Below are positions 1 through 52,310 of a DNA stretch of 64,000 nt, one piece after another. The notes below the pieces were generated by a model. That model had not been told where the DNA came from. It was given only the letters and a program-made list of their open reading frames with translations, and did not search any database. The stretch covers positions 33,544,001 through 33,608,000 of the forward strand of contig CM119372.1 in assembly GCA_051294905.1 (NCBI GenBank). The letters run 5' to 3'. Source of the stretch: Botryllus schlosseri (lineage: Eukaryota). Every line of letters starts with the position of its first letter. Position 1 is the first letter of the stretch. Both the position numbers and the translations under genes were made by a program.

Positions 1-1046
1 TTGTCGCAGAAATAACTATGAATCCGACTTCTGACACCAATTGTTATGTTCTTGATCTTGTTTGAACAATAACTCAATACGACGAGGTTGCAATACGAAA
101 TCAGTATATTTTACAACAGTATGACTTTAAGGCAGCGACACGATCCAGAGTACAGTTAAATGAAAAGACCCCGAGACAACAGAACACAGGGTATAAATAC
201 AAGCATGACACACGAGGAAATAATGATTGGCTGAAATTACTAATCCTATAGAAAGAAAGAGTTCTACGACACCGAACGTAAATGCACGAACATAACACGT
301 TTCACCATGAATGATGATCGGCTATTAGCTCTATCGAAAGATACTACGTTCAAAATCTTGATTTTGAAGATATTACCGCTGATTTTGCTTCGGCGAGAGC
401 GCAAATTTTGGAACGGCAATTGACCGTTTATTTGCCTAATACCTTTGTTCTCCATTTTGTCTTTTATTTTGCCTTAACGCCAAGACAGTGAGGCTTCATT
501 CTCAGGCAATATAAAACTTCTGAGTTGCGGCAAATTATTTATAATTCTTTTAATGGAACGACTGCTTGAACATGAAACTATTTCCGAATTGTTGGAGTCG
601 GAGTCGGACTCGTGAAAAAATACTGGCTGGAGTGCTGATCGCAGTTGTGAAAATGTCCCTATGACTCCGACTTCCTTGTTATGAAAACAAGTTCTTTCAG
701 AGGTCTTTTGAAATTACTAGTATTAAATACAATATGATTTGTATGTATCAACAATCACTGCTATTATAGTAATGATATTGAATAAATTGAACATTATTTG
801 CAAATTGCAATTGAGTTACATAGAGGAAGAACATTGCAAGATGCATATATTCGTGACCAACGCAAAAATGATGACGCTATTACTATAGCTGCAATTTTGG
901 GACTTATGCCATGATACTGTGAAAGAGTAAATAGATCGTTTGGTTTTGTAAGTGACAAACATCATTTGTAAAGTTGATGCAGACATAACAAACGCTGATT
1001 CCCACTTGACAAAATCAAAATATTTGTAGTAAGAAGGGGAGATGTG

Positions 1047-4000
1047 AGTAGTAGGATGAGCTGGGTTTGGCGCAGACCAATCAGAGAGCGCCACGTCATC
1101 CTAATTGCCACGCCCATTTTCATGCCCTAAGGGTACATTCATCTGCTACGTCATCTGTGCCACATCATCAAGCGCCACGCCTATAGTGCCACATCATCCA
1201 TCCATTGCCATATCATCGCTGCATTGATTGCCGCATCTTGATACTTTTCTCAGATATTGTATTATGTGTATTTAGGACTAATATCATCCGTCCATATTTT
1301 CAACTTGATTTTATGTGTACAAGTTACGGTTTCTGCAGTTTCCACATTTTACGACTTATGATTGCCGCGTCAAAACTTACCTTGGCTAGAATCGACAGAT
1401 TTTCTATTATGTGTATTTAGGACTATGTAATTAAATTCCTATTCAGATTATACATAAATGCGAAAACTATGATGTCTATGCAAGGTTATATTCTCCGGAT
1501 AATATTATTAATATCAAAGTTCTACACATCATCACTAATTACTTAATATAAAATGCGATTTTGAGCGCTGCGACTTGATAATATGAATCCCTACGCTTCT
1601 GATGCATGATTTTTTGTGATAATGACCTAGGTAATATTCATAGTCTGCTACGATTGTTTGGATATACATTATAGCAATACCCCACTAAACTATAGGCGGT
1701 TTTATTACTCTATTGGTCAGAGATAACTCATCCGTCCATATTTTTAAACTTGATTTTATGTATATAAGTTACGGTCTCTGCAGCCTCCACATTTTACGAC
1801 TTATTTTCATTAGACGCAGGCAAGCGATTCTCTAGGTCGGAGCTACGGAAACAAATCACTCGCATGTGAGCGTTCCGAATAGTCTTATAGAAATTTCTAA
1901 AGTCGTAACAGCTTAGTAGCATATGCGCGAATCCCAAGGCGAAAATAATCGAATGAACTATAGCCGCAGGCGTGCGATTCGCAGGACTTTAATTATACAA
2001 ACAGTTTCGATGCCTGTACGCGAACCCCAGCGTTATAACGATGAGGTCTAATTAGCACGTTCTGAAGCCGTAAATTTAGTCAACATCATTGAGATAGCCA
2101 TGATTTAAAGATGGTGATCGAGTGTGACAATAGCACTCGTCAAGGTTAGACAAACATAACTACTCTCTACTTCACAAAATATAAAGTTATAAAAGTAAGC
2201 AGATTTCTATGAAAACCCGTCAAATAGAAGTAAAATTAGCCTAGAACCATAACTACTTACTGAAAAATCGTTACGTAGAAGTGGGGTTAGTCTACGAACA
2301 TAACCACTTACTTTCTTTGAAATCTCTACTTGTACTTGTATTCGAGCGGAATTGCGACCGATGCATTAATGACTTTAATACTCTGTATTTTAAATTATCA
2401 TCGCAAAGTGCACGAATTTCCATGTTGATCAAATACCACAAACTTTGCTTGCTTTCAGAGTTAGTAACTAAGCGCATAACAGAATTTACCCAAAAAATCG
2501 GTACTCCGAAAATTTTGTAAAGTAGAGCTTTTTGGTGTTGGACTCAAGTTCCAATGAACAAGTGTTCACGTAGCTTCGAGGTCTGAATGAGTCTTTTAAA
2601 GTAGATAAAAACGACAAAAACTAACCGAAAAAATTTACGAAGTTTGGATGCGCCATATTTAGATTTTTAAAAATTATTCATACCCATGATTCGAAATATT
2701 GTTAACTAACTTATGTTTTCGACATAAGATAAGCGTGAAGTGTACAAATTTCGATGTTGCGCAAATACCAAAAACTTTGCTTGCTTTCAGAGCCGGCAAC
2801 TAAATGCAAGACAGACTTTACGCAAAAAGTTGATATTCTGAAAATTTTATCAAGTTAATAGTTTAAAAAATTATACTTGAGCACTACGAAATGTACAAGT
2901 ACTTTACCTTTACACGACGTTTTTTGTAAAATGAATACTAATTTTATTTAAAAAACTATGGGAATGAGGTATTAGAAAATACCAATTCGAGAGGTTCTCT
3001 ACTAGATAGTGCCTAGCTTTCTCCATCGCCAATACCTGATGCTGTCGGATAAGTTTATGAAACTGACACCTCTCATCCAGAGCAATGAAAAAAGTACATT
3101 CCAACCTTTTATTATCACTAAATTTCTTCTAAAGTACAGGAAGTGCAGATCTCAAACAAGTGAAAAAGTACGTATTAAAGGTATAGTTTGCCAGATAACT
3201 GAAAATAATAAATAAAATTAAAAAATTAAAAAGCGCAAAATATTACATTTTATCCCGGAACGCAACAAGAAATATCGTATGAGTTTTGTAAAGTAGATAG
3301 AAAACTATGCCTGATAACTGAAAATAATAAAAATAAAATTAAAAAGTGCGAAAATCACATTTTATCCCGGAACGCAACACGAAAATTCGTATTACTTTTT
3401 TAAAGTAGAAAGAAAACTACACTATTCCGATGCACTAAAGACTTTTACACTCCGGATTTTGTATAGTACATAATAATTTTACATTGCGGGGTATTCAGTA
3501 AACTTTAATCCAGTGATCCTCCGTCTATTTTCAATCACGCTCCTTTTATTAGTCTAGGTTTCGAACCACACATCCAGTACGTTTTTATGGGGATTAATAT
3601 TTTTAGACTCAAATACTTTTCCAATGTACTAAAGTCTTACAGTACGGATTTTGTAGAGTAGTTAGAAAACTACCTTTTGAGTCGATAGCGAAGTACTTGT
3701 TCATTTTGGAGTACTCAAGTATTGGTTTGGCCTTGGTAGCAATATACTCAATCAAGTGATTATCTATTTACAGCGCATCTACTTCTATTTCAGAGTTTTC
3801 GGTTTTCAGACAAACTATACCTTCAATACTTACTGATTTACTCGTTCGGAAATCATCACTTCTTGCACTTTACTAAAAATTTACTGATACTAAAATGTTA
3901 AAATGTACCTTTTCAATGCCCTCGATGAGCAGCGCCAGTTTCCACTATATTCTATCATGCATTTTCGCGCTGCAGAATGACTTATCGCAACGAAAAATAG

Positions 4001-5901
4001 CAAAAATACATCGAGAATCTGCAAACTCTCACTGCGAAATATTTGAGTTTTACGAATTATCCTTCAAAGTGAGCTTACATATTGGATATTATCAAAATCC
4101 TCTCCATATCGAAATAATTGTACATTTGGAGTACTCAAGTATAGGTTTCGCCTGCTTGCGCTATACTTAATCAAGTGATTATCTATTTAGACTTCATCTA
4201 CTTCTATTTCAATTTCAGAGTTTTCAGTTATCAGACAAATAATAACTTCAATACTTACTTTTTCACTCGCTCGGAAATCAGCACTTCATGTACTTCAGAA
4301 GAAATTTACTGGTAATAGAATATTGAAATGTACTATTCCATTGGCCTTGATGAGCGGGCCCCGTTTCATCTATATTCTACAATGCATTTTCACACTTCAG
4401 AATGACTTATCGCAATGAAAAATAGCACAAATACATCGAGAATTTGCGAACCATCACTATACGATAATTGAGTTTTACAAATTACCCTTCAAGGTGAACC
4501 TACATGTTGCGTATTATCCAAAACCTCGTAGAATTTTGCTCCGAGCGACAAATCCTTTGAATTAAGGTGGAAGTACCTATTTCCGACTAAGTAAAACGTC
4601 AGAGTTCTAGGTCTATTTCTGCTTAATTCTGAAACTATAACGGATTTGAAGCAGTACAATATCATAAACACTTGAGAGTATTTGTTGCATGTAGGCAAAA
4701 AACGTACTTGAGTACTCGGAAGAAGTCAATACTTACTTGTTTACCCGCTCGGACATCGTCACTTCTTGTACTTTAATAGAAATTTACTACTGATAAATGA
4801 GTAATCGACTTTACTCGATATTCGCGTACTATGAAACTGAAGAATGAATAGACGCGTTTTCAAACTATAGAATGATATAGTCTCTACAAAATGTTTTTGA
4901 TAACAAGATAACTTTTTACATGAATGGCTACGTATTCTAATATTCAAATAACCCAACACAGAGCTCGTACTTACAGGAATATCGTAGTTCTTGTAATAAA
5001 GTTGCATGTGCACAATATATGTTTAAGGTGAGTCCTACATATTCATGATTTCGTCCGAGTTTGTATTTTAGAAAATATTATACAACAATTTACTTTACTA
5101 ACAAGAAGTGTCGAGTTATCGAATGATTTTCCCTTCCGTCAAAACAAATAGAATGTGAAACTATATTTCTAACGTTTCTAACCCTTTGCACACCAGTGGT
5201 AAATCACAAAAGCAACAAGTTTCGAGAATCGAGTTATTGAATAACGTGAAAGCGTTTTTTCAGTGTCAAGTCGTTATGTTGATTAAAGCGTATATTTTAA
5301 TACCCCGAAGTGAGACTTCGAAACTATCGTCAGTTCTCCAAGAGCAAATATCGTGTTCTACAAGTGTTAAGTTGTTGCATTATGTAGCTGGTAATTGGTG
5401 CACGTAAGCCAAGGATCGAACCAACTTGTGTTAACTTGCGTTATTATGTACCTAGTAATTGGTGCGAGTAATCCCGCAACTGCTGCTGTTCAATGGCTTT
5501 ACCGCGTTCTTACCAAGTACCTTAATGAGGATAGACAGCCCCAAGCTGATAATGTAAGTATGTATGTATGAATGATGGGTCTTATGGTGCTTGATGATAG
5601 AAGCTGGTCTTCTATTCTATATTCCGAAATAATCAAGCTGGTGGTTTTACCAGCACCGAGCCACATAGAAACTTTAGTAGAATCACTTATTATAACTCCT
5701 CACGTTCACTCAAGTAAATCTAATTTGATACTCGAGTACTGAACCTTAATTTTCCAGCAGTGTGATAAACGCCGTCAGATGGTACTCAACATCGCGCAAT
5801 TCCGCTCGAATACAAGTAAAAGTACAGATTTCAAAGTAAGTAAGTGAGTAACTGCTGGTTATGTTTGTAGACTATATCTCCACTTCTATCGTTCAGAGAT
5901 G
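1047..5901 (+). repeat. Left inverted arm (~4.86 kb) of the Polinton-like element
   Basis: Reverse complement of 8926-13483. The ORF track mirrors accordingly (2281+/12311-, 3895+/10660-, 5186+/9420-) with only isolated substitutions. Confidence 0.97.
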
Positions 5902-5902
5902 G

Positions 5903-6359
5903 CAAGTGGCATTATCAGACATGAAAATGATATTATCACCTAATACCAGAAGTTAACACACGTCAATGTGGTTCGGAATTCACGAAAATTGGTTACTAAG
6001 AGAAGTATATTCTTGTATACACAATAGCGGAGAGAATCTTTAAAATGTAGTAAGCAGGCCGATGGGTATTCGTTGAGTTGTACAAGCATAAAAAGCATTC
6101 CCGCGCGCGTCTTAGGATTAGGTGGTAGGGTTAGAAAGAGTTAGGTCTATGAGCGCGCGGGAATGTTTTTTATGCTTGTAAAACTCAACGAATACCCATC
6201 GGCCTGCTTACTACATTTTAAAGATTCTCTCCGCTATTGTGTATACAAGAATATACTTCTCTTAGTAACCAATTTTTCGTGAATTCCGAACCACATTGAC
6301 GTGTGTTAACTTCTGGTATTAGGTGATAATATCATTTTCATGTCTGATAATGCCACTTG
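5903..6359. repeat. Near-perfect hairpin (~205-bp arms) with a 44-bp telomere-like loop
   Basis: 5903-6108 is the reverse complement of 6153-6359 with few mismatches. Loop: gtcTTAGGaTTAGGtggTAGGGTTAGaaagagTTAGGtctatga. Confidence 0.95.
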
Positions 6360-8925
6360 TCAAGGTAATACAAACGTAAGCTCAAGCTACTTTAATGTTA
6401 ATTCATTCAATTAGCTTGTGTTTATCTTGAAATTACTTGGATTATGCTGAGTTTCGCTATTAAAAAACACTGCAACATGACTGAGTTAATCAAACACAGC
6501 GCAAATAATTACAAATCGCCTGCAGTAGGTATTATTTTATGATATACGAAGGAGGATGACACGAATATCTTATAATACTCTAGTAATTCATTTATTTATC
6601 TTGTGTTAATTATGAAATCACTTGGCTCACGCTGTAAAATTACACTGCAACGTGAAAAGTTATTATATTTAATCTCATAAGTTAGAGCTAAATTTGAACT
6701 CGTTGGAAAAATAAGATTCAGTAGGCCTACTTGATTATCAAATTAGATTTACTTGAGTAAACGTGAGGAGTTATAAGTTATTCTACTGAAGTTTCTACGA
6801 GGTGAGGTCCTGTCAAAAACCACCAACTTGATTATTTCGGAATAGAATAGACGATCAACTTCATTCGTCAAGCGGCATAAGACCCCTCATACATACATAC
6901 ACAGTACACACTTACATTAGCTGATTGGGGCTGTCTATCCTTACGAGGATGCTTGGTAAAAACGAGGAAAAGGCCTTGAACAGCAGTTGCGGACTTACTT
7001 GCACCAATTACTAGCTATATAATACAACAAGTTACCACTCGTTGATGTAACTGTCCTCATTTGTATGCATAGCCTACGAGAAATTGCTTACTGAGGGAGG
7101 TACTTTTTTGAAGATTGCAACAACATAGCCATATATGTATTCATCCCGTATACACAATATTTTTATAACACGATATTTGAAGGTGGAGATGAACTAACGA
7201 AATTTGGTGTCGTGGTACATAATTTTAAACTGTCGTAACTTCGTATCGCTATGATGTCATATAACACTGTTCCAAGTCCCAGGACTATCACTGAAGAGCT
7301 CGTCGAATGAATATCGTTAGTCAAGATGATCAAACAGAACGAATAGAAGCTCACCGTAACATATACTGCTATTTGACAGACTTCAAATATAGCGAAAAGT
7401 AATTATGTAAGTCATAACACATAGTCAAGTGTACAAGTACATATAGAATTAATAATAAATGAGATTTACTTGCTACACTCAAGTACAGGTTAAAGAAAAG
7501 ATTTCCGAATGGGTGAATGAGCTAGTTTTTTATTCCAAATTTTGTCTCAAACTGAAACTGTCAAGAACTGATAAAGTACTCTAAAACCTAGTCACTTTTT
7601 ACGTGGAGTGAGTCGATAGCGAAGTACTTGCACATTTTGGAGTACTCAAGTATAGGTTTGGCCTGCTTGCGCTATACTTAATCAAGTGATTACCTATTTA
7701 CACTGCATCTACTTCTATTTCAGAGTTGTCGGTTTTTCGAGCAAACTGTACCTTCAATACTTACTTTTAACTCACTCGGAAATCACCACTTCTTGTCCTT
7801 TACTAGGAATTTACTGCTACTAAAATGTTGAAATGTACTTCTTTTCAGTGGCCTTGGTGAGCGGTGTCAGTTTCATCTATATCCTACGATGCATTATCGC
7901 GCCGCAGAATGACTTACTGCAATAAAAATATCAAAAATACATCGAGAATTTGCGAACTCTCACTGCGCAATATTTGAGTTTTACGAAGTACCCTTCAAAG
8001 TGAGCCTATATGTTCGATATTATTCAAAACCTCATAAAATTACGCGTCGAGCGAGGAAACCTTTAAAATAAGATAGAAGTAGTCATTTCCGAGTAAGTAA
8101 AACGTTAGTACTCCAGATATATTTCTGCTTAATACTATAACTATCATGAAGTTGAAGCACTTCGATATCATAAGGACTTGAGAGTATTTGGTGCATGTAG
8201 GCAAAAAACCTACTTGGTATACTCTGAAAAAGTACGAGTACTTCTTTACTTAACAACTCCAAAGGTTAGCACAGTTTGTGGTATTACGATTACCTGCTAA
8301 TAAAATGTTGAAATGTAATGTACTTTTATTCAGGGGTCTTGATGAATTGTACCAGTTTCATCTATTTCCTACAATGCATTTCGCTGTCCTGAATGACTTA
8401 TCATCACCGTGAAAAAATAGCAAAAATATACCGAAAATTTGGGAAGTCCTACTATGCGATATTTGAGTTTTTCAATTTACATTTCGAAATTAGCCCAGTT
8501 GGATATCAACGAAAACCACGTAAAATTTCTTTTCAAGCGTTATGGCTTCAACTCGAGCAAATACGTATTCCGAATTTTATGAGTGAAATAACCCTTCTTA
8601 TGTTAAATCTACATAGGGCAGAATGAATCGAAAAAAAAATGCGGAAGCCTAGGCATCGAGATATAGCTCGGCGTCACACCGCGGTCCAATAACGAGAGTG
8701 GAATAATATAGAAATCATACCGAACCATTGTAAAAGTGACGTTTCTTAGTTTATGCATATAAAATTTCACATTGTAAAAGTTAGTATTCAAGGTCCATTT
8801 TTGTTCAATACTGAAACTGTCTTGAATTTGAAACAGGCCTATATCATAAACACTTGAGTAGTTGGTGCATGTAGGCAAAAAAACACTTGAGTACTTTGAA
8901 GAAATACATGTACTTCTCTGCTCAA

Positions 8926-11900
8926 CATCTCTGAACGATAGAAGTGGAGATATAGTCTACAAACATAACCAGCAGTTACTCACTTACTTACTTTGAAATC
9001 TGTACTTTTACTTGTATTCGAGCGGAATTGCGCGATGTTGAGTACCATATGACGGCGTTTATCACACTGCTGGAAAATTAAGGTTCAATACTCGAGTATC
9101 AAATTAGATTTACTTGAGTGAACGTGAGGAGTTATAATAAGTGATTCTACTAAAGTTTCTATGTGGCTCGGTGCTGGTAAAACCACCAGCTTGATTATTT
9201 CGGAATATAGAATAGAAGACCAGCTTCTATCATCAAGCACCATAAGACTCATCATTCATACATACATACTTACATTATCTGCTTGGGGCTGTCTATCCTT
9301 ATTAAGGTACTTGGTAAGAACGCGGTAAAGCCATTGAACAGCAGCAGTTGCGGGATTACTCGCACCAATTACTAGGTACATAATAACGCAAGTTAACACA
9401 AGTTGGTTCGATCCTTGGCTTACGTGCACCAATTACCAGCTACATAATACAACAACTTAACACTTGTAGAACACGATATTTGCTCTTGGAGAACTGACGA
9501 TAGTTTCGAAGTCTCACTTCGGGGTATTAAAATATACGCTTTAATCAACATAACGACTTGACACTGAAAAAACGCTTTCACGTTATTCAATAACTCGATT
9601 CTCGAAACTTGTTGCTTTTGTGATTTACCACTGGTGTGCAAAGGGTTAGAAACGTTTGAAATATAGTTTCACATTCTATTTGTTTTGACGGAAGGGAAAA
9701 TCATTCGATAACTCGACACTTCTTGTTAGTAAAGTAAATTGTTGTATAATATTTTCTAAAATACAAACTCGGACGAAATCATGAATATGTAGGACTCACC
9801 TTAAACATATATTGCTGTGCACATGCAACTTTATTACAAGAACTACGATATTCCTGTAAGTACGAGCTCTGTGTTGGGTTATTTGAATATTAGAATACGT
9901 GGCCATTCATGTAAAAAGTTATCTTGATATCAAAAACATTTTGTAGAGACTATATCATTCTATAGTTTGAAAACGCGTCTATTCATTCTTCAGTTTCATA
10001 GTACGCGAATATCGAGTAAAGTCGATTACTCATTTATCAGTAGTAAATTTCTATTAAAGTACAAGAAGTGACGATGTCCGAGCGGGTAAACAAGTAAGTA
10101 TTGACTTCTTCCGAGTACTCAAGTACGTTTTTTGCCTACATGCAACAAATACTCTCAAGTGTTTATCATATTGTACTGCTTCAAATCCGTTATAGTTTCA
10201 GAATTAAGCAGAAATAGACCTAGAACTCTGACGTTTTACTTAGTCGGAAATAGGTACTTCCACCTTAATTCAAAGGATTTGTCGCTCGGAGCAAAATTCT
10301 ACGAGGTTTTGGATAATACGCAACATGTAGGTTCACTTTGAAGGGTAATTTGTAAAACTCAATTATCGTATAGTGATGGTTCGCAAATTCTCGATGTATT
10401 TGTGCTATTTTTCATTGCGATAAGTCATTCTGAAGTGTGAAAATGCATTGTAGAATATAGATGAAACGGGGCCCGCTCATCAAGGCCAATGGAATAGTAC
10501 ATTTCAATATTCTATTACCAGTAAATTTCTTCTGAAGTACATGAAGTGCTGATTTCCGAGCGAGTGAAAAAGTAAGTATTGAAGGTATTATTTGTCTGAT
10601 AACTGAAAACTCTGAAATTGAAATAGAAGTAGATGAAGTCTAAATAGATAATCACTTGATTAAGTATAGCGCAAGCAGGCGAAACCTATACTTGAGTACT
10701 CCAAACGTACAATTATTTCGATATGGAGAGGATTTTGATAATATCCAATATGTAAGCTCACTTTGAAGGATAATTCGTAAAACTCAAATATTTCGCAGTG
10801 AGAGTTTGCAGATTCTCGATGTATTTTTGCTATTTTTCGTTGCGATAAGTCATTCTGCAGCGCGAAAATGCATGATAGAATATAGTGGAAACTGGCGCTG
10901 CTCATCGAGGGCATTGAAAAGGTACATTTTAACATTTTAGTATCAGTAAATTTTTAGTAAAGTGCAAGAAGTGATGATTTCCGAACGAGTAAATCAGTAA
11001 GTATTGAAGGTATAGTTTGTCTGAAAACCGAAAACTCTGAAATAGAAGTAGATGCGCTGTAAATAGATAATCACTTGATTGAGTATATTGCTACCAAGGC
11101 CAAACCAATACTTGAGTACTCCAAAATGAACAAGTACTTCGCTATCGACTCAAAAGGTAGTTTTCTAACTACTCTACAAAATCCGTACTGTAAGACTTTA
11201 GTACATTGGAAAAGTATTTGAGTCTAAAAATATTAATCCCCATAAAAACGTACTGGATGTGTGGTTCGAAACCTAGACTAATAAAAGGAGCGTGATTGAA
11301 AATAGACGGAAGATCACTGGATTAAAGTTTACTGAATACCCCGCAATGTAAAATTATTATGTACTATACAAAATCCGGAGTGTAAAAGTCTTTAGTGCAT
11401 CGGAATAGTGTAGTTTTCTTTCTACTTTAAAAAAGTAATACGAATTTTCGTGTTGCGTTCCGGGATAAAATGTGATTTTCGCACTTTTTAATTTTATTTT
11501 TATTATTTTCAGTTATCAGGCATAGTTTTCTATCTACTTTACAAAACTCATACGATTTTTCTTGTTGCGTTCCGGGATAAAATGTAATATTTTGCGCTTT
11601 TTAATTTTTTAATTTTATTTATTATTTTCAGTTATCTGGCAAACTATACCTTTAATACGTACTTTTTCACTTGTTTGAGATCTGCACTTCCTGTACTTTA
11701 GTAGAAATTTAGTGATAATAAAAGGTTGGAATGTACTTTTTTCATTGCTCTGGATGAGAGGTGTCAGTTTCATAAACTTATCCGACAGCATCAGGTATTG
11801 GCGATGGAGAAAGCTAGGCACTATCTAGTAGAGAACCTCTCGAATTGGTATTTTCTAATACCTCATTCCCATAGTTTTTTAAATAAAATTAGTATTCATT

Positions 11901-13483
11901 TTACAAAAAACGTCGTGTAAAGGTAAAGTACTTGTACATTTCGTAGTGCTCAAGTATAATTTTTTAAACTATTAACTTGATAAAATTTTCAGAATATCAA
12001 CTTTTTGCGTAAAGTCTGTCTTGCATTTAGTTGCCGGCTCTGAAAGCAAGCAAAGTTTTTGGTATTTGCGCAACATCGAAATTTGTACACTTCACGCTTA
12101 TCTTATGTCGAAAAAATAAGTTAGTTAACAATATTTCGAATCATGGGTATGAATAATTTTTAAAAACCTAAATATGGCGCATCCAAACTTCGTAAATTTT
12201 TTTCGGTTAGTTTTTGTCGTTTTTATCTACTTTAAAAGACTCATTCAGACCTCGAAGCTACGTGAACACTTGTTCATTGGAACTTGAGTCCAACACCAAA
12301 AAGCTCTACTTTACAAAATTTTCGGAGTACCGATTTTTTGGGTAAATTCTGTTATGCGCTTAGTTACTAACTCTGAAAGCAAGCAAAGTTTGTGGTATTT
12401 GATCAACATGGAAATTCGTGCACTTTGCGATGATAATTTAAAATACAGAGTATTAAAGTCATTAATGCATCGGTCGCAATTCCGCTCGAATACAAGTACA
12501 AGTAGAGATTTCAAAGAAAGTAAGTGGTTATGTTCGTAGACTAACCCCACTTCTACGTAACGATTTTTCAGTAAGTAGTTATGGTTCTAGGCTAATTTTA
12601 CTTCTATTTGACGGGTTTTCATAGAAATCTGCTTACTTTTATAACTTTATATTTTGTGAAGTAGAGAGTAGTTATGTTTGTCTAACCTTGACGAGTGCTA
12701 TTGTCACACTCGATCACCATCTTTAAATCATGGCTATCTCAATGATGTTGACTAAATTTACGGCTTCAGAACGTGCTAATTAGACCTCATCGTTATAACG
12801 CTGGGGTTCGCGTACAGGCATCGAAACTGTTTGTATAATTAAAGTCCTGCGAATCGCACGCCTGCGGCTATAGTTCATTCGATTATTTTCGCCTTGGGAT
12901 TCGCGCATATGCTACTAAGCTGTTACAACTTTAGAAATTTCTATAAGACTATTCGGAACGCGCACATGCGAGTGATTTGTTTCCGTAGCTCCGACCTAGA
13001 GAATCGCTTGCCCTCGTCTAATGAAAATAAGTCGTAAAATGTGGAGGCTGCAGAGACAGTAACTTGTATACATAAATCAAGTTTAAAAATATGGACGGAT
13101 GAGTTATCTCTGACCAATAGAGTAATATAACCGCCTATAGTTTAGTGGGCGCCTATAGTTTAGTAGTTTTGACGCGGCAGTCATAAGTCGTAAAATGTGG
13201 AAACTGCAGAAACCGTAACTTGTACACATAAAATCAAGTTTAAAATATGGACGGATGATGTTAGTCCTAAATACACATAATACAATATCTGAGAAAAGTA
13301 TCAGGATGCGGCAATCAATGCAGCGATGATATAGCAATGGATGGATGATGTGGCACTATAGGCGTGGCGCTTGATGATGTGGCACAGATGACGTAGCAGA
13401 TGAATGTACCCTTAGGGCGTGGCAATTAGGATGACGTGGCGCTCTCTGATTGGTCTGCGCCAAACCCAGCTCATCCTACTACT
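8926..13483 (-). repeat. Right inverted arm (~4.56 kb) of the Polinton-like element
   Basis: Starts CATCTCTGAACGATAGAAGTGG, the reverse complement of the left arm's inner end. Lacks the equivalent of left-arm 1378-1680. Confidence 0.97.
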
Positions 13484-15406
13484 GATGTGGGAGTGTTGAT
13501 ATATAACTGTGACGTCATAACTATAGCCTTCACGCTAACTAGAGCAAACTAGAATCTAGTACAGTGGATCTCAAACTTTTCGTATTTACGCCGGCAGCCA
13601 TAATAGGTGATTTTAATCCGGCGTTTAAAAGCGTGACAATCAACAAAAAGTACCATCGGCTTAATATATTTTTGTTGCGAATGATTAGTATGTATAGGCA
13701 ATGTAAAACCGAGCCTTGTGAGTTGCAATTAGATGCTACGTTTTATCAATCTGTAACGTTGCAGATCGGTGGAAAACCACATCCTTCAGTTACGCAGTCA
13801 CGGACGCGTCTGTAATACGATACGTTATTGTTCCACACGGCGGTAGCTCCACGATACATCATTTTGACAACTAGCTTCAGAATTAAAGAGCAGCCGGAAA
13901 TGAGGATAACTGAAATCCTCTTGCTTCTTATTACAAATCTACATACTGCTGTACGATCGTCTTGAAGCTGTCGCGCTGTGGCCTGCTATGGAAACCGCTG
14001 TATAGCATGGCGAAAAAATTGTATAGCATGGCGAAAAAATTGACGCGAGCAGACGCAACCTACAATGGATGTGGTAGCGGTGTTAGTTATGTGTAAATAT
14101 ACAGTGTTGTAAAATTTATGTTTAGGAGTAACGAAAATCCTTCGATCTCGGTTCATATCCTAATCGCGCAAAGAGGTTATGTATAGTATCTGATACATCA
14201 TATATTTATCGCTCATCGTCTTACTAACTAAAGACCTCGTAATAGTGGAGGCCTCATAAGGTCTCATTTTCTGAAAAGAGCAATGAGGTGAAAAAAGGGG
14301 AATAGAACGACTGCGGTCGAATCCTTATGCTGTTAAAATTATGCATCTCTCACGGGGAGTGGATGGCAACACAGCCCAGCCCTGACCCTCAGCATATGCC
14401 AATTTCCAGATTTTGATGAAGCATCAAATTCTACTTCTACTTGAAGTAGCTTTGGGCGACATCGAACAGCACTACTTCTACTCGTACTTGAGTAAAATTC
14501 TGCCTCGCTACTTCGACTTCTACTTGAGTAGCTTTCCTGACTCCTTTGACCACATTTGTTTTCATCCCACTGATTTCCTGTCATATCAAATGCACGTTAT
14601 TTACAACATTCATGTTCTGGAGAAGCAGAAATCTTTTGCGTGGGCCGCTAGGTGTTTAGCTCATTGATGCTTCGCTTGGTATGCATTCTGTTCGGTTCAC
14701 TCCGGATAGCCTCGTCGATCGATGTGAATCGTGAATTATCACCGGGTCATTGTGAAAACCCCTACTAATCAGCGGATGCCTATATATGTGTCCCGATTAC
14801 GCTAACAAAGAAAGTCACGAAATTATCAATTAACTTGACGAATACATTTTTCATCAACACATATAGTTTTATGACGAATCGGAATATAAGTACACGGAAG
14901 TTACAGCACGACGGAATTCGGCATGCACGAATAACTCAATATGGCACGGCATACGGGCAAGAGAATGAAAAGCCCCACATAACCTTCGTGAAACTAAGGC
15001 TGCAATTAGGTTTGAATAATATCATTCCATCTTCAATCGATAGTTCTGCACTGAATAATCATTTCAAATGCATTCGATTCCGATAACGCCATGCTTGGTA
15101 TTCTGATATCACCAATACTACGAACGACTTTTGCCTGGTGATCTGACGCATTAACACAAAGGAATAGTACTAATAGAATTTAAGGCTTGTATGTACTGTA
15201 CGAAGTGTTCCGGATAGCCAAGTCAATGACTATTCATGCTATAGCTATAGCTGCAGTTATCTATACACTGCTCTAGAGACCCAAACCAGATTATACAACA
15301 CCAAACACTAATAATAAAACCTGGCAAAATTCAAATTTCATGTTTATAGTCTAGGCCAGGACCAACAATACGTTCACGTCCATGGGGAAACTACGAGGGT
15401 GAAATG

Positions 15407-16429: not shown

Positions 16430-17854
16430 TCATTTTGTTTTCAAATATGACCAGCAGAAGACATACAGAATGACACAAACGAAGTAGAAAGGTAGTGGAA
16501 AACACGCGGAAACGGCGACATTAATCGTATTGATCATGAGTCGTACTATAGCTGTGCTTATTGGGATGCTTATGACAGACCCGCAACTCGTAAGACAAAC
16601 CGCCCTTAACCGAATAGAAAAAGGTTGATCTATCATTACCGCCACTATGCGATGAGTTAGACAGACGAATGCAACATATCTCGTGCACTCAGCAAAGCTA
16701 GTTGCACCGATCACTAATGCTAAGGAATGTATATATTCCGATAAACCCAACGACACTAAGACGATCCCCATCATACTGCAGACTGTGAGCACGATCAACA
16801 CAAGGCGTGGCCTATCATATCGATCAAGAATGTATCCTAAAAGGGCTGAACCAATAGAGGATATGCATACGTTGCACATGAAGACTGTTCCAGCAAATAC
16901 ATCATTTGTGCCCGTGAACGTTGATGTGATGATGGAAGATAGGAGTATTTCTGTCAAAGGCAAGATTGTATATACGAACGAGCTTGCCGCAAGTAGCAAG
17001 ATATACGGTCGATTGTACCATACGTGTAAAAATCGTTTCAAGTCCTGCGGAAGATTCGGTGGTAGCTCTTCATTGGTGGTTTCTTTGAAATGTGACTGCC
17101 CGTCTTCCTGTGCTTTCGGGGGCGCTTCAGAAACTATAAACCATGAAGTCAGACAGCACAGAAACGATATTGACAATAGAGTGCCGAAGACAATCATGTA
17201 AGTTTTCGAATACTCTTCAGTTAGGTGACGTTTCACAAAGCTGTCCGTCGCGTTTAATGGACGTTCCGTCGCTAGGTTTGTAATACGTCCAATGGATCTT
17301 GTAGCAACAGCGTTCGACAGTATTGAAGTTATCCGTCTTGCGACAAGGGGTAGAGCGACAGCCCTTCCTCTTTCATACTTCGGAAACCAGTTCATAGCCA
17401 CCAATTGCAACAGCACTACTGTCAACGCAGACGATACTCCGGTCAACACCTGACCAAACATCACAAATCCAATATTATTTTGCGATGAAACACCAAATGC
17501 GATGAATGCATTGGCAAAAACCATAACGCCAGACGACAATAAAGTCATGTTTCGAAATTTTGCTCTGTCGCTGAAGAAACATACAACGATACCCGACACC
17601 ACTCTTGCCATATGATTAATGGACGTCAGTACGTCCACTACGGCTGGTCTGGCGGCGAAGAACACAGCTGTGATATCGTTTATGAATCCGAAGAACGACA
17701 AGTTGAAAATATCCAGCATCAAAATAAAACTTACGAGCAATAGCAATACCCATCGCTTCAGACAAATCTTGTAAATTGTGCCGTGGAGTTCAAATGTTTC
17801 CTGTTCCGTCGGCGGCTTATCGCCGCTTTCAATCTTTTCGTAAGCTGATCTCAT
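16430..17854 (-). CDS. Intronless MFS transporter, SLC49/FLVCR-like (474 aa from the first ATG)
   Basis: Long ORF with about 12 hydrophobic segments. Motifs YKICLKRWVLL, NWFPKYERGRA and the MFS motif-A-like GYILDRYDRPR resemble SLC49/FLVCR. First ATG is at 17854; the track start at 17872 is GTG. Confidence 0.85.
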   Translation of the reverse strand: MRSAYEKIESGDKPPTEQETFELHGTIYKICLKRWVLLLLVSFILMLDIFNLSFFGFINDITAVFFAARPAVVDVLTSINHMARVVSGIVVCFFSDRAKFRNMTLLSSGVMVFANAFIAFGVSSQNNIGFVMFGQVLTGVSSALTVVLLQLVAMNWFPKYERGRAVALPLVARRITSILSNAVATRSIGRITNLATERPLNATDSFVKRHLTEEYSKTYMIVFGTLLSISFLCCLTSWFIVSEAPPKAQEDGQSHFKETTNEELPPNLPQDLKRFLHVWYNRPYILLLAASSFVYTILPLTEILLSSIITSTFTGTNDVFAGTVFMCNVCISSIGSALLGYILDRYDRPRLVLIVLTVCSMMGIVLVSLGLSEYIHSLALVIGATSFAECTRYVAFVCLTHRIVAVMIDQPFSIRLRAVCLTSCGSVISIPISTAIVRLMINTINVAVSACFPLPFYFVCVILYVFCWSYLKTK

Positions 17855-19729
17855 TCTCAAGAATATACACACTTCATCACTTGCACCGCTCGGTATGGAT
17901 TGAGATGCGCAATGCGCATAAATCGATCAATCGCTTCCTGTTAAGGATAGTTGGTTCACGCACTCGTTCGTCCACAAATGAAAATTACGAAGTATGTCGG
18001 GCACCCGAAACACGGTGGCTCCTATTTTATATATGTATGTAGGAAATGTGAGAAAAACGTGACATTTACGTAACATCTGTACACGATATTGTAACATACA
18101 GGACGAAATCATTGAGATCAGTGGTTCTTCATATTTAATAATCTGCGGAACACTTACGGTAATATGCAAGCCCTCGCGAAGCCCCAAATTTTCGCTGAGT
18201 CATGAAAACAGAAATCTACCACAATACACATCTAACTACAGATCTAATACATTGCTATAGATTGCTGTGCATCAACAGCGTGGTAAAACAAAAACATTAA
18301 AACACGATTTCCACGCAAAACCAAAACATTATAATGAATATTCATTGAAAATCGGCTGTTCCCTTCCAGACACGAGATACCAGTTCAGAAATGCGAGGTT
18401 TCACATTGTTAAGTGTCATGGTCACCGTGTTGATCGCTCAAACGAAAGCGTGATACCAATTGCTTCATTGCAAATGATCTTGTTAATATTGGTAATTTTG
18501 TTTCCCAATATCGAACCTCAACCTTCCCGCGTATGCCACAACAGTCATGATTCGACTGCGCGGGCCTAAATATCTGCAAACAAAGATGGCCAAGAAGGGC
18601 GTATCTTCACTAGGGCGATTTTTTTAACCTAAAAAACGGAAGATTTTGACACAAAAAACTTGATTTTAACCAAATTCTGACCTCACATATGCAGATTAGG
18701 TGTTTCCGCACATAATGTTAAAATTGTACTACTTAGCTTCATTTCAGGTTGAAATTGTCTGTTCTTACGAAGTAATTTGGTCGGATATACATTGATCATA
18801 ACACCATGTTAACCTATTTGTTTCATTTGACCGTTTATGATTCACAATGAGCAGACAATCGGCCGCCTTTAACGGTGGGCCCATAAAGAAGGCTACAAGC
18901 TGTACAATATGAAATGATAAGTTCACTGACAGTGCAAAATCTACGATACAAACGAAATGTGTCTTGGCCTCTACAGAGCCCCCGAGACTGACTCCGGGTA
19001 CCCCTAGTGTTCCATAGAACACCGCCTGAGAACCACAACAATGTAGATTGCAGAGATAGAATTGTCCTTTCAAAGGAACGGGGTTCCGATTCTAAACCTA
19101 AACCCCTGCGCATGGCACAGCACACGACCTGTAACCACGGCATTTACAATTTGGATAGTTATTGAGCCTAATTCCCTGCACCCAATAATGGTGTGTCATC
19201 ACAAGTCATACAAACGAGTTTTGTGCGTCTTGGCCTTCTGCGGAACGCCTGGAACACCAGTTAAGAACCAATGATTCAGATGCTTTATAGTCTCCATGTC
19301 TGTAAGAGAATTCGTGATATCCTCTGGTAGGGCAATCCAACGAAGAATATATTTAGTGCAATGCAGCTTTATTAGAACCACATGATTCATAACTATACAT
19401 TTGCGGTTGTACGCATCATTTTCATATCACACGATACCTAGACACATTAACCCGAACACAAACATAGTTACATGTACAGTGTACACCACACATTACACAG
19501 ATATACAAATTCCATACCTAACATAAATGTATATATGCCGGCGATGATTTTCCGATGTTTGAGTGTTAGTTCTTCGGTACCTTCTTGCGAGGCAGAGCAT
19601 AGTAAATTAGTTCTACAGATTACGGTGTAACAATATAGTGAATGTATTGAGGATGATATCTGTGGTGATTAAGTTCCTTTGACCACTAGAGGGTGCTTCT
19701 GCTGATTGCATTATGATAAACCTTTACAC

Positions 19730-41631: not shown

Positions 41632-42407
41632 GCATATATCGATGTCGATGTGGTATGAAATTACCTTTTATATGTAAATGTATAATCTTCCGCTCAATCC
41701 GGCTGACATTTGTCATTTCAACGTGTAGGTAAAGAAATCAGTGTTGCTTCGTATGTAACTTCGTAAGATGCGACGTTTTGTTAATGCTGTTGCATCGCCC
41801 CGAGGCAGGATTACATCGGTGTTGGTGTTTATGGAGCAAATACGTCGATACTGGTGAAATAAGACGGATACAATACGACGCACGTAGTATATGTTCACAA
41901 TCAGAAGAGACGACGCATGTGGCACACGTAGGATATGCAACTGGTCACTTAGAAGCAGGACCGCGAGAAAATAAACTTTAATATGGTCCATGGATAGATA
42001 AGCATGCTACATGCAACACTTCAACATGAGGATTAAAGTTGGTTTGGGTTAGGATGACATTTAGGGTTATGGTTTGGGTTAGGGTTCATTTCATAGTTCG
42101 GATAATGTAAGGGTTCGTTTCGGGGTCGCAGTTACATGCTCAACTGTCGTTTTGATCGAGATGCATACTTTATATCAGTGATTCCTAAACTTTTTACACC
42201 GCGAGCCAAATCCAAGTTTTATTTCATATCGCGACCTAAGCCTCGCGCATCGACATGAAGGCATTTTTAATGACAGTATGCTACGTATTTACTGGCATTT
42301 ATGATATAGAGAAGGCGCAGATGTTGCAAGAAATTTAGCAATCGCGTAGGGCGGTCGCGACCCATACGTTAAGAGCCCTTGCTTCATATGTTACATATAT
42401 TAGCAGG

Positions 42408-44702
42408 ATGGAATTTGTCGATAAAATAGTTATAGTCACCGGCGCTTCAAGCGGCATTGGACGAGCGACAGCGTTGGCTTTTGCGGAGCACGGATGCTTT
42501 CTTACCATAACTGGAAGGAACATGGCAAATCTTAATGACGTTTCAAGCCTATGCAAAAATAAAGGAGCCAAGGACGTAGTCATAGTAAAGGCGGAGTTTA
42601 AAAACCTGGAAGACGTGGAGTCGATTGTACATGCCACTGTCGAAAAGTACAAGAAAATTGACGTGCTTGTCAATAATGCGGGGATTAATGTCGTTGAAGA
42701 TCTGGAAAACACGAAAATGACCAACTTCGACCTTCTATTTCAAGTCAATGTGAAGTCCATGCTACGGATTACCCAACTGGCCATGCCCTATTTGGTGGAA
42801 TCAAAGGGTAACATAGTCAATGTGTCCAGCTACTGTGCCGACAAGCATGTACCCAAGTTTCTCTTGCTTGGCATGACAAAGGCGGCAATCAGTCAACTCA
42901 CAAAGACGACTGCGCTGGACTACGCTCCGAAAGGCGTAAGGGTGAATGCAATATGTCCTTATGTCGTCTTGACCGGTATCGCCAGGTACGTTTGCCACAT
43001 TTTACATGTGTTACTGCATTGTTTTTCACGTGGTGTTCCGCAACAAATCTGCTCGCTTAGCTATATATGATACTTCGAAAGTCCTAACTGTACACCAAAT
43101 TCGGCTCAAATTGTAACATGTAGACGCGACGCTCTTGATGCTCAAGATTATGGATTTGAAATAATAGTATTTACGGGGGGTTGGGAATATCTATATTTGA
43201 TTATAATAAAAATATATATAATTGAAAATAACATTGAAATTAGGCTAAATTTGTAGTACATCGTCTTCGTAACTAGGTTAACAATTCCAATGGGTTGACA
43301 GATCTATTTAAAAACAATTCAAAATAAATTTACCATTTTTTAACTTAAGTAGCTTCAATTCTACTCGTTGGAATGGAGCAAAATTTGGCGTAAAACAATT
43401 CTATCGAATAGCCAGTGAAGTTTGAACTGTAGGCGATCGACTCAACACAGGAGATGTAATGAGCTTACTATTGTGTTTGTATATTCAGTATCACCGACAC
43501 GAATATCTAGTCGTTATTTGCTTCACTTAGCTTCACTTGCTGTGGGTTACCCATATAACTAGACCTGTACACAGCGATTAAAGCAGGCGTACTCGAATGC
43601 GACACTAGAATTAATTGTAATATTTACATGAATCTTCTACAAATCGAAACTTGCGCAGCTGAAACCCACACCAGCCACGTGTGGGTCACATTTTACGCAA
43701 ACTAGTAAAAAAATAGTTGTTTGACTGTAATCAACTTAATAATGTCTTAGTGAAATTTGGGAAGGCGACAGGGACTAACAATAATAGCACACGAAAAATA
43801 TTAAATTCACAAAGCGGAGCCTCGTGACGTAGGACTGTTTGCTGATGTTGTGTCCAAGAGATGCAATTTCGAAACTGATATCCGCGATGTTGATACGACA
43901 CCTGCAGCATGCCCAATGATATTCGCAGCCATACAAGTAGTGCAACACGTTGGGAATTTAAAGTTGTCTTGCTATGCCCTTTATCGTTCGAATTAAGCAG
44001 TCGATAGGCATTTTAGTCTGCAAATTGTCGTGGAAGTAAAATCGAAATGCACAAACATTGACTGGTCATTCAGAACTTGAGTGTGCCGTTGCCGAGAGAG
44101 CTCAATACGAAACGGCTCGCCAATTGTGAGATTCACGATCAGGGATATCTCGTTGTTTACGTAAAATACAGTTGCATATTATATCAACATTTCAACTTCA
44201 TGCAGGACTTATGTAAAAAACCATTTCAAGCTTGAAATTATTGATTCGTGCCAGATCAGGTACAGCGGCCACCAACCAAATGATACAACGCTGTTTTGTT
44301 CATGTGGCTCTTCTATCGTCAGTAGTAATATTGACTTATTTACGGATCTGTTGAGGACCGGCAGTGCGGTTTGGTTATGATTGCAAACATTCTTGCTATC
44401 CTCGCGTATGGTTGGTGTATACGCGGCAATATAGCAACGTGTGCCAGTAAAAAAAAGCTTTGCGTATAACATGTATATACTATTCGAAGAGTTATAAATC
44501 GAATTCTGCCTGCAGAGACCGATTCGACACACGCGAGGAATTCGACAAATATTACAAAGACGCGGCAGCTGCAATTCCTCTCGGTAGAATTGGCGAGGCT
44601 GAGGAGTGCTCCAACGCTATCCTTTTTCTGGCTTCCAACAAATCTGCTTGGACCACTGGACAATGCCTTGTTCTGGATGGAGGCAAGGGCCTCGTGTCGT
44701 AA
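42408..44702 (+). CDS. Short-chain dehydrogenase/reductase (FabG-like), 2 exons (42408-42985, 44516-44702), 254 aa
   Basis: Motifs TGASSGIG, DVLVNNAG, NVSS, GVRVNAICP, PLGRIG, TGQCLVLDGG. Donor AG|gtacg at 42985 and acceptor tgcag|A at 44516 are phase-2 consistent. Confidence 0.9.
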
Positions 44703-47700: not shown

Positions 47701-48469
47701 AAGAAGGTTGAGTACTGCTTGGTTAGTATTGCAGTTGGTACGAAAGCCAAATTGGTTAGGGTACAGTAGAGGTTCAAAGTACTTATATAGACGTGTATGG
47801 ATGAGCTTCTCAAACACTATAGCCATGCAAGATAAGATCGATATAGGCCTATAGTTAGACATATCACTTTTGTCCCCTTTTTTATAAACTGGAACCACCC
47901 TTGCAATTTTAAGTGAGTTAGGGAAAATTCCATTTTCTACACACTGATTGAAGAAGTGGCAGATGTATGGTGTAATAGCTGGTGTTATTACTTTGAGCAG
48001 CTCAACTGGTAACTTATCGTAACCCTCTGCCTTCCCACCCTTCATATTTCTAATTATATCATGTATTTCTCGTTCATTGGCAGGCACCATGAACATGCTG
48101 TTAGCATTGCTCTGGAATGGAGGCAAGATGCATCTGTTGTGCGAATTTTTACACTTCAAAGCAAGATTTGGACCAATTGATGTAAAATATTTGTTGAAAG
48201 TGCATGCTATGGATGCAGGATCAGATATCACCAGCTCATTTTCATCGATAATTTGGGATGGTTTGGTTGATTTATGTGAGCAAGGATTGATGAGATTCTT
48301 TATCCCACGCCACATTTGTTTTTGATTTGAGCTATGTTGATTGAAATATTTGTGAAAGTATGATTTTTTTGCCTTGAATTTAATCTGGTTTAATTTATTT
48401 GCATATGTTTTATACTTGATTCGGTCTAATTCAATACCATTTGTGATCCATATACGATGAAGATTATTC

Positions 48470-51162: not shown

Positions 51163-52310
51163 GTTTATTCCTTTTCTTAATGGAGCGCAGAATACCTGGA
51201 GTGATCCAGGGTTTGAGATGTAACTTGCGTTGTCTACGTGTAAGGCGCTGGATAGGAATGTGTTTGTTGACTAGGTCAGTGATCTGAGATAGAAAGCTCT
51301 CAAACTGAGCATCAAGATTTTCTTTGGCGAGCGGCTGTAGATCATTACCAGGAAAATAGTCGAATGATTCAACTAATAATGAAGTCTTGGACTCCATTGT
51401 AGGTAGTCTTTTATAAACATAACTACTTTTAAATGGTGGAGATTTGGTAACAACATCGGCCAAAACTGGATAATGGTCTGTAAGATCATTCCGGATAACC
51501 AAAGGATGAATAGGGCACGCAGTTAAGTTGGTGTATATGTGATCAAGTAGTGTTGCAGAGTGATGAGTTACTCGAGTCGGTAAAGTGATAAGAGGAGCCG
51601 TACCGTGAGAGTTCAAAATATTCAAATGGTCAAGAGTTCCCGTTGTAGTAGATAGTAAGTTGATATACAAGTCTCCGAGGATGAAAAAAGTTTTCGTTTG
51701 AGAATTTAGTAATGACAATGTGCGGCTCAGTTCCGCAGAGAAATCTGAGAAGGAGTGACTTGGATGTCTATAGATAACACCAACTATGAAAGAGGGCGAA
51801 TTGCCGATAGGATGAGCTATTTTGGCCCATATTTGCTCTACACCATGAACATCTAGGTCATAAGTATCTGTCAGCGAAACTGGATAAGTCGATTTTATGT
51901 AGAGGGCGACACCACCAGCATTTGTGGGGGATGGTGAATGATAGAAATCGAAACCATCAAGATTAAGATCAGGAGCATTTGTATTGGGTAACTTAGTTTC
52001 GGATATTCCTATATTAGATGGTGCATTATGCAGGCTATAAATCATGTCGCTAAGGTCATCAATATGACTAGCTAGAGATTTAAGATTGAGGTGCATTAGA
52101 GTAACTTTTTCACGGTGCCCTATGTCATCCAGTTTATGTGAAATGTCATCAATGTCGGAGGAGTAACACTCAAATACATTGCTGAAGTTAAATTTGGAAA
52201 TGTCTAACATTTGATTATCATGAGGAGTAGCAATTACCGTATCATGTCGTGATGATGTAGAGGACATCTTTGAGAGTTATTTCTTGATAAAATGGACATC
52301 TGTACTGAAG

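Follow-up and report, generated by a model that had tools for sequence, protein, structure and literature searches.

What kind of element is a 12.4-kb palindrome that ends like a Polinton and carries no recognisable gene? The question is raised by positions 1041–13489 of the Botryllus schlosseri DNA analysed here (contig CM119372.1; the whole stretch of 64,000 nt is called the window below), which the initial annotation had interpreted as a non-autonomous satellite mobilised by a Polinton. Polintons, or Mavericks, are said to have been described as self-synthesizing transposons by Kapitonov and Jurka in 2006 and by Pritham et al. in 2007. Our analysis indicates that window 1047–13483 is very probably a copy, slightly decayed, from a large family of gene-less satellites, which are palindromic over their whole length, belong to the lineage of one class of Polintons of the same genome (class C, see below), resemble snap-back defective viral genomes in structure and are presumably propagated by helper elements.

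The sequence, read directly, has the layout GATGTG-AGTAGTAGG…CCTACTACT-GATGTG at 1041–13489 (in longer terminal reads AGTAGTAGGATGAGC from 1047 onward and GCTCATCCTACTACT up to 13483, with GATGTG on either flank), and both the exact GATGTG target-site duplication (TSD) and the termini claimed by the initial annotation are seen in it. The nearly identical inverted arms are equally evident from self-comparison, which gives blocks of 99–100% identity: 1047–1115/13415–13483 (69 nt, 100%), 1742–2636/12195–13089 and 5013–5901/8926–9814 (99% each) and 2628–5014/9816–12202 (2,387 nt, 100%). When chained, 1047–1377 pairs with 13483–13165 (5 mismatches and a single 12-nt gap), 1681–5901 with 13149–8926 (25 mismatches, 99.29% identity) and 5900–6108 with 6362–6153, the last pairing enclosing a 44-nt loop at 6109–6152. 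Two segments have no partner: 1378–1680 (303 nt) is found in the left arm only, as well as in two further copies of the family (C29 and C13), and 6363–8925 (2,563 nt) is found in the right half only. What had been taken for a plain 3-kb spacer is actually the small palindrome 5900–6362 around the 44-nt loop followed by the segment 6363–8925, in which 1,379 of 2,563 nt have similar sequence elsewhere in the window element and 1,205 nt in the C1 copy. A nested foreign insertion was considered as the source of this segment and dropped. Since the segment is family sequence, it is most simply explained by a deletion in the left arm. On this simplest reading the window copy would be a canonical palindrome of ~15.3 kb that lost 2.56 kb beside the centre (left arm) and 0.3 kb in the right arm (the mirror of 1378–1680). 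The right flank of the element has one match in the genome, itself, and the assembly contains no paralogous empty site.

The genome searched comprises 495 Mb in 219 contigs (C1, C29 and the like are contig labels). The terminal 300 bp of the window element have at least 43 matches there at 88–100% identity (1,025 first-look candidates, 40 scored), many of which form inverted pairs 14–16 kb apart. The 14-nt terminus AGTAGTAGGATGRG occurs 52 times versus once for the reversed control, and the end layout AGTAGT-N20–30-CCAATCNNAGANNGCCACGTC has 502 matches (251 + 251) versus 0 for its control, which excludes chance. The centre motif is matched 230 times (110 + 120; control 0). Places of end-layout and centre-motif matches refer to the first 100 listed of each. 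The window element is no singular oddity but a damaged member of a family that has at least about 230 centres.

Seven copies were read whole or nearly so (the window element and those on C29, C13, C3, C16, C7 and C1), and all of them are long-arm palindromes. The C29 copy (C29:225413–241002) shows 99.74% self-complementarity in 15,594 aligned nt; its arms of 7,774 and 7,772 nt differ at 6 of 7,735 sites and surround a 44-nt asymmetric loop flanked by CCCGCGCGCG and CGCGCGGG. The C13 copy has the same form with a 100-nt deletion in one arm, and in the C3 copy the right terminus is lost. Alignment demonstrates that the window palindrome 5900–6362 is the centre of C29 and C13, loop included. The canonical form is a whole-length palindrome of 15.2–15.6 kb with this conserved loop, and the centre motif lies at the exact midpoint of C1:16020280–16035865, C1:17092130–17107389, C3:28583709–28599004, C10:11843958–11859485 and C12:22820123–22835273 (15.2–15.6 kb). 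Many copies have arm modules in common, in shuffled arrangement (window 2628–5014 has at least 266 matches among 2,284 candidates), and the arms contain 112-bp tandem repeats and arrays of ~200-bp period.

Perfect 6-bp TSDs flank 10 of 12 end pairs and are all different (GATGTG, GTCGTG, TACATC, CATGTC, TGTGTT, TCCGTC, TGTGTG, GATAGG, CATAAG and TGCCTC). One further pair has an imperfect TSD (GCTATT/CCTATT, 5 of 6), and one has none because mirror symmetry continues through 1.47 kb of non-family flank. The sister gene-less copies with distinct 6-bp TSDs, which the initial annotation proposed to look for from the element ends, therefore exist. AGTAGT starts 27 of 30 family ends. Long-read assemblers can produce inverted duplications, and the palindrome might in principle be an assembly artefact from fold-back chimeric reads. 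But 12 examined loci on several contigs have this architecture, with the TSDs given above (ten perfect and different, one 5 of 6, and the twelfth pair with mirrored flanks in place of a TSD), the centre motif is found 230 times, and the arms differ by point changes and asymmetric deletions, which are unexpected from a folded read. An artefact is thus scarcely conceivable.

The ends at C7:14249804–14253076 and C7:14285715–14288987, ~36 kb apart, are mirror images over 3,273 nt (99.7%); this mirror duplication of at least 39 kb takes in an element end together with 1.47 kb of non-family host flank. The copy at C16:11759050–11780356 (21.3 kb) consists of overlapping palindromes, with outer arms of 8.64 kb and an off-centre self-palindrome of 9.1 kb. 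The solitary end C2:40221–40520, near the contig start, is 99% identical to the window left end over 557 nt, after which the match ends; it either is a fragment or belongs to some other element sharing that end.

According to the initial annotation the element contains no open reading frame (ORF) of 100 amino acids (aa) or more. In this form the claim does not hold, as the longest stop-to-stop frame comprises 115 aa (8609–8956, minus strand), but its substance does, namely the lack of any gene recognisable by Pfam: nine frames of the window element, the 115-aa one included, have no Pfam match above the cut-off. Similarly, tblastn of 14 Polinton ORFs against the seven family copies gave no match at E≤1, while in a positive control the same proteins detect class-C Polintons at 63–65% identity. 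Genes for rve integrase, capsid, protease and packaging ATPase are absent from the window element by tblastn and Pfam, so that it has none of the genes by which an autonomous Polinton/Maverick is recognised. No frame exceeds 131 aa in a 10-kb stretch of the C29 copy (left arm, centre and inner right arm) or 167 aa in the stretches from C16, C7 and C1, and Rfam and tRNA scans of window 1–15000 gave no match. The proposed non-autonomous character is borne out by this lack of protein remnants in seven copies (tblastn) and of Pfam matches above the cut-off in the nine window-element frames.

Intact Polintons are present in the same genome. A Pox_A32 match led to a ~19.4-kb Polinton at C11:4506640–4526123, which encodes an A32-type ATPase (1.1e-9) and an rve integrase (1.5e-12) with a chromodomain (3.9e-10). 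Its polymerase frame is in three pieces, its left terminus is truncated by ~60 nt, and its right terminus ends in ACTACTACT. At the DNA level this element is not similar to the window element. It belongs to a lineage other than class C and also carries a caspase-domain frame (Peptidase_C14, 4.2e-13). At least 78 places in the genome match the C11 polymerase-like frame (78 of 261 candidates scored), mostly in open frames of ~1,290 aa, and fall into four identity classes (92–100%, 66–68%, 62–64% and 37–38%); the C11 integrase has at least 144 matches (144 of 770 candidates scored). The genome is heavily loaded with Polintons, and most of these polymerase and integrase matches lie in long stop-free frames.

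Class C is the Polinton class of 62–65% identity whose ends are of the satellite type. Such ends bracket a class-C polymerase and integrase at C12:13171379–13189258 and in at least five further pairs, and in at least two more pairs the ends enclose an integrase match alone. One class-C copy was sampled whole (C12) and two more by their ends, together with one class A copy. The C12 Polinton is 17,880 bp long, with the TSD GATATA and a terminal inverted repeat (TIR) of ~169 nt. Its 1,294-aa open frame scores 0.97 beside protein-atlas clusters in which 96–100% of members carry PF03175, and it further encodes Pox_A32 (9.7e-9), rve (1.7e-12) with Chromo (1.9e-8) and unnamed frames. The TSDs of the other two class-C copies are CAAGGA and CTTACT, so 6-bp TSDs are present in 3 of 3 helpers examined. 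Un-nested helpers are 17.5–19.1 kb long; two end pairs with helper genes are longer (23.8 kb with polymerase and integrase, 26.8 kb with integrase only).

The ends of the satellites are those of these Polintons. The C12 Polinton agrees in its first 22 nt (22/22) with the C29, C13 and C16 satellites, the commonest type, and over the first 68 nt the identity is 82% to this type and ~76% to the window subtype. Beyond the TIR, satellite positions ~80–192 align at 88–89% with the C12 Polinton's right end, whereas the corresponding place at its left end offers short motif matches only. The two other helpers likewise match with their right end only (88 nt at 88–90% and 35 nt at 88.6%), so right-end-specific homology is present on both satellite ends for 3 of 3 helpers examined. 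Comparison of the sequences thus suggests that both satellite ends are copies of one and the same helper end, the right one. This is what a snap-back predicts and a plain internal deletion does not. The link to Polintons drawn by the initial annotation is therefore supported by intact elements with the same termini (22/22 terminal nt, 82% over 68 nt, 6-bp TSDs), and the snap-back-like structure by the match of both ends to the helper right end beyond the TIR. The family has the cis features of a non-autonomous Polinton (6-bp TSD, AG…CT termini with short repeats, helper-homologous ends) as well as those of a snap-back product, i.e. a palindrome of whole length (C29, 99.74%, 44-nt loop) with both ends from the same parental end.

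The same evidence bears on whether these are foldback (FB) transposons of another, cut-and-paste superfamily (similar to FB/Mutator-like elements (MULEs), to P/Galileo elements or the like), with ends that resemble Polintons by coincidence. Long inverted arms composed partly of subrepeats (the 112-bp tandem and ~200-bp periods), such as are known from Drosophila FB, and the absence of coding capacity would agree with it. However, the ends are homologous to intact Polintons of the same genome over ~200–350 nt, satellites and helpers alike have 6-bp TSDs and the same layout of AGTAGT, 24-nt block and CCAAT, and FB and Galileo make duplications of 9 and 7 bp; no ends or TSDs of FB/MULE (9-bp) or P/Galileo (7-bp) type were found in the family. 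This makes a foldback transposon highly improbable.

How could such a palindrome arise? Polymerases that use a protein primer begin at short terminal repeats, sliding or jumping back (phi29, the CATCAT of adenovirus), and rve integrases make short duplications of fixed length. During protein-primed strand-displacement copying of a Polinton, synthesis initiated at the right end would turn back on itself, or alternatively the displaced strand would prime itself. The resulting duplex would carry the right end at either side and the 44-nt turn-around loop in the middle. We infer this snap-back origin from the Polinton right end as the likelier one. Both satellite ends carry the helper AGTAGT terminus and subterminal motifs, and helper proteins could therefore copy and insert such a duplex: the helper terminal protein and pPolB would use the AGTAGT terminus and the subterminal motifs for copying, and the helper rve-chromo integrase would insert the product with a 6-bp duplication. 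There is good reason to think that the family is propagated in this way by helper proteins in trans, judging from the common ends and TSDs. The palindrome itself would then be the inherited unit, with arms kept alike. A ceiling on length set by the capsid is suggested by evidence which is only circumstantial, with satellites of 15.2–15.6 kb versus helpers of 17.5–19.1 kb.

Alternatively, the family may descend from an internally deleted Polinton whose inverted repeats grew stepwise, by panhandle-type end repair or arm-to-arm gene conversion, until the arms met. It would fit that helper ends are identical, including a hypervariable block, in 7 of 7 pairs, that a difference-free tract of 2,387 nt in the window arms is flanked by 1.4% divergence, and that a 303-nt piece of the helper interior is mirrored in both arms of the C16 copy. 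Gradual growth should, however, stop at varied places, while all examined copies have the same 44-nt loop with its flanking GC stem. A single common loop is better explained by one turn-around event. Furthermore, the seven copies read whole or nearly so include no intermediate in which short repeats enclose a long unique middle. Stepwise growth is on balance unlikely.

Several observations weigh against a snap-back satellite propagated by Polintons. Replication, mobilisation and packaging are inferred here from sequence. Past the first 200–350 nt, similarity between the arms and the single fully read helper is undetectable, so ~7 kb per arm would not be accounted for by a simple one-step snap-back of a present-day Polinton. 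The polymerase assignment depends on atlas look-alikes and a few known motifs: PF03175 does not match the 1,294-aa frame of C12, and a six-frame genome search with PF03175 gave 0 polymerase matches where the controls were equally silent. A genome search with PF00770 gave 0 matches, again with silent controls, and searches of PDB sequences with the polymerase frames gave no match. The C7 mirror duplication (at least 39 kb) means that large palindromes in this genome also form by another route, and it may be in the chromosome, not in the course of copying, that part of the arm symmetry arises.

The history of this symmetry can be read from the differences between copies. When the four arms of C29 and C13 are aligned, 33 sites separate the two copies with the arms of each copy agreeing (AABB), 29 sites have a single deviating arm (12 + 11 + 4 + 2), and asymmetry common to the two copies (ABAB/ABBA) was found at 0 sites. 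Comparison of 11 end pairs over the terminal 1.8 kb, where the alignment is uncertain in the most diverged parts (the left/right comparison within an element being independent of that), gave 521 variable columns that are symmetric in every element, of which 297 have each state shared by at least two loci, versus 29 columns asymmetric in one element and one column asymmetric in several. For 10 of 11 elements, the sequence nearest to either end is the other end of the same element. Symmetric differences without shared asymmetries mean that the mobile ancestors already had a symmetric palindrome and that it was symmetric anew with each insertion. The mirrored 303-nt piece in C16, which comes from the left interior of a helper, demonstrates that newly acquired sequence becomes symmetric too.

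Two processes may keep the arms alike. Each displaced strand would snap into a hairpin in which mismatches between the arms are exposed to repair. Mismatch repair in such hairpins is the explanation we tentatively prefer, at less than even confidence. Arm-to-arm conversion in the chromosome is a real alternative and probably contributes to the symmetry. The window arms have 0 differences in 2,387 nt versus 25 in the flanking ~1,830 nt (~1.4%), for which a uniform rate has a probability of ~1e-6, and window 2628–5014/9816–12202 looks like a recent conversion tract.

Between the invariant AGTAGT and an invariant region starting with CCAATC, the window element has 24-nt blocks at 1053–1076 and 13454–13477. 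Mean pairwise identity is 53.5% at positions 7–31 (14 variants in 19 elements) and 100% at positions 32–60. The block is nevertheless identical at both ends of the element in 11 of 11 satellite pairs and in 7 of 7 pairs with helper genes (six with polymerase and integrase, one with integrase only), whose blocks are all different. Identity of the helper ends, hypervariable block included, indicates that end-to-end copying operates in the Polinton lineage. By eye, the variants have a combinatorial look with recurring sub-blocks and often contain a short internal palindrome (GGTACC, GGATCC, TGATCA); some blocks are common to helper-type and satellite-type ends. The invariant subterminal region 1077–1250 (mirror 13280–13453) begins with CCAATCAG and has several GCCAC(G/A)(T/C)C repeats, including CCACGTCATC. 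Its motifs presumably resemble, by their consensus, the CCAAT/Y-box and the ATF/CRE-like ACGTCA site; adenovirus origins have host-factor sites to which they can be likened. An IMG/VR scan for the conserved subterminal motif gave 0 matches.

A bolder interpretation, speculative and rather unlikely, is that the satellites represent defective-interfering genomes of a Polinton virus which are endogenous and inherited through the germline, and that they are engaged in an arms race with their helpers in which the 24-nt block is a recognition code. The block would be recognised by the terminal protein/polymerase or by the integrase; helpers would alter it to shed satellites, which would recapture it by template switching, and the hairpin of the displaced strand would keep the 7.8-kb arms symmetric at each round of copying. 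If true, this would be the first sequence-level record of protein-primed, adenovirus-like Polinton replication in an animal germline.

It was also considered that the host uses the family, 7-kb hairpin transcripts giving rise to double-stranded RNA and small RNAs against Polinton ends, which would be compatible with the satellites being mobile. Perfect long hairpins are generally efficient sources of small RNAs, and 200–350 nt of the arms are common to the helper right end; but helpers match only a small part of each arm, and ~230 dispersed copies with fresh TSDs look selfish, unlike a host locus. Host use is accordingly improbable. The sequencing runs listed for words of the element include no RNA run, and the best of them keep about half of the sampled words, as expected for a repeat family.

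With a helper-propagated satellite as the preferred interpretation, the family can be compared with known systems. Polinton replication has, to our knowledge, been deduced from genes, and we know of no direct demonstration. Polintons make 6-bp TSDs according to the consulted sections of PMC3014272, and their features are restated there and in those of PMC6431247, which also mention foldback elements. The satellites are similar to Polintons in TSD length, AG…CT termini and ends homologous to elements with pPolB and integrase, and differ in being without genes and in having both ends from one helper end. Moreover, the inverted repeat is the whole satellite (two arms of ~7.8 kb), compared with ~0.17 kb in the helpers and 0.58 kb in an anole element (same sections of PMC3014272). 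Centre motifs (230) outnumber the helpers confirmed (at least six polymerase-integrase pairs, plus ~30 polymerase matches in the 62–64% class).

The defective adenovirus genomes of Daniell (1976) and of Daniell and Mullenbach (1978) reportedly have an inverted-repeat structure. Similarly to snap-back defective genomes, the satellites are symmetric one-end palindromes, somewhat shorter than the helper and presumably dependent on it. They differ in being integrated in the germline with clean TSDs and inherited, in hundreds of copies and with subfamilies, and in that most of the arm is not helper sequence. Snap-back and copy-back defective viral genomes are palindromes of whole length in the excerpt consulted of PMC13506859, and the two adenovirus studies are cited in that of PMC5033970 for defective genomes from left-end sequences.

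Foldback elements (Drosophila FB) have in common with the satellites very long inverted arms with subrepeats, a mostly non-coding sequence and abundance. In contrast, the satellites differ in ends and TSD length, their 7–8-kb arms meet at a 44-nt loop, and their partner is a virus-like Polinton and not a MULE/P-type DDE transposase. Like miniature inverted-repeat transposable elements (MITEs), they keep only cis-acting ends, have an autonomous partner and an interior unrelated to it; unlike them, they are 15 kb long versus <1 kb, fully palindromic, with both ends from the same helper end. Primate Y-chromosome palindromes are kept alike by arm-to-arm gene conversion, and arms >99.9% alike by concerted evolution are the point of similarity; those are fixed chromosomal structures, whereas the satellites are TSD-flanked mobile copies with one common centre.

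No description of palindromic Polinton derivatives was found in the consulted sections of PMC4028283 or in a full-text literature search with Repbase and subscription journals outside its range. Non-autonomous Polintons are apparently absent in the anole lizard, as far as the consulted sections of PMC3014272 go, and butterfly Polintons have gene-bearing TIRs of ~2 kb in the portion consulted of bioRxiv 10.1101/2025.02.07.637071. TSD-flanked palindromes with one helper end twice, a conserved loop and the kept AGTAGT are what protein-primed strand-displacement copying should generate through a snap-back error; ordinary cut-and-paste transposition is not expected to yield them. The family may serve as a set of natural substrates for studying the terminal sequence needs of polymerase and integrase, the capsid size as a limit on the length propagated and the survival of perfect 7.8-kb inverted repeats in an animal genome.

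Table 1. Features of the palindromic element, in window coordinates.
Feature	Position	Strand	Basis or remark
Left TSD copy GATGTG	1041–1046		Sequence; perfect and mutually distinct 6-bp TSDs at 10 of 12 family end pairs
Terminal trinucleotide repeat AGTAGT, element terminus	1047–1052	+	Starts 27 of 30 family ends; on intact Polintons too
Hypervariable block of fixed length (24 nt)	1053–1076	+	Same at both element ends
Subterminal region with helper homology	1077–1395	+	Satellite ~80–192 and 315–349 match helper right ends at 88–90%
Left palindrome half (left arm and left stem of centre)	1047–6108	+	Self-comparison, chaining
Left-arm-only segment (303 nt), deleted from right arm	1378–1680	+	Chaining; kept in C29 and C13
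Difference-free tract (2,387 nt), mirror 9816–12202	2628–5014	+	Self-comparison; 25 mismatches in ~1.8 kb of the main arm block outside it
Conserved family centre, short palindrome around loop	5900–6362		Self-comparison; alignment with C29 and C13 centres
Asymmetric central loop (44 nt), flanked by CCCGCGCGCG and CGCGCGGG	6109–6152	+	Turn-around point common to family
Right-half-only segment (2,563 nt), family sequence	6363–8925		Most simply a left-arm deletion
Right arm, mirror of 1047–5901	8926–13483	-	Self-comparison, chaining
Right TSD copy GATGTG	13484–13489		Sequence

Outside the palindrome, window 46981–53258 (minus strand) contains frames with RVT_1 (1.8e-35), an AP-type endonuclease (2.3e-9) and baculovirus FP domain 2 (1.4e-14), which suggests a non-LTR (long terminal repeat) retrotransposon with an unusual extra domain. 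An intron-less frame for a major facilitator superfamily (MFS) transporter is located at window 16430–17926, and a short-chain dehydrogenase frame at window 42339–43070.

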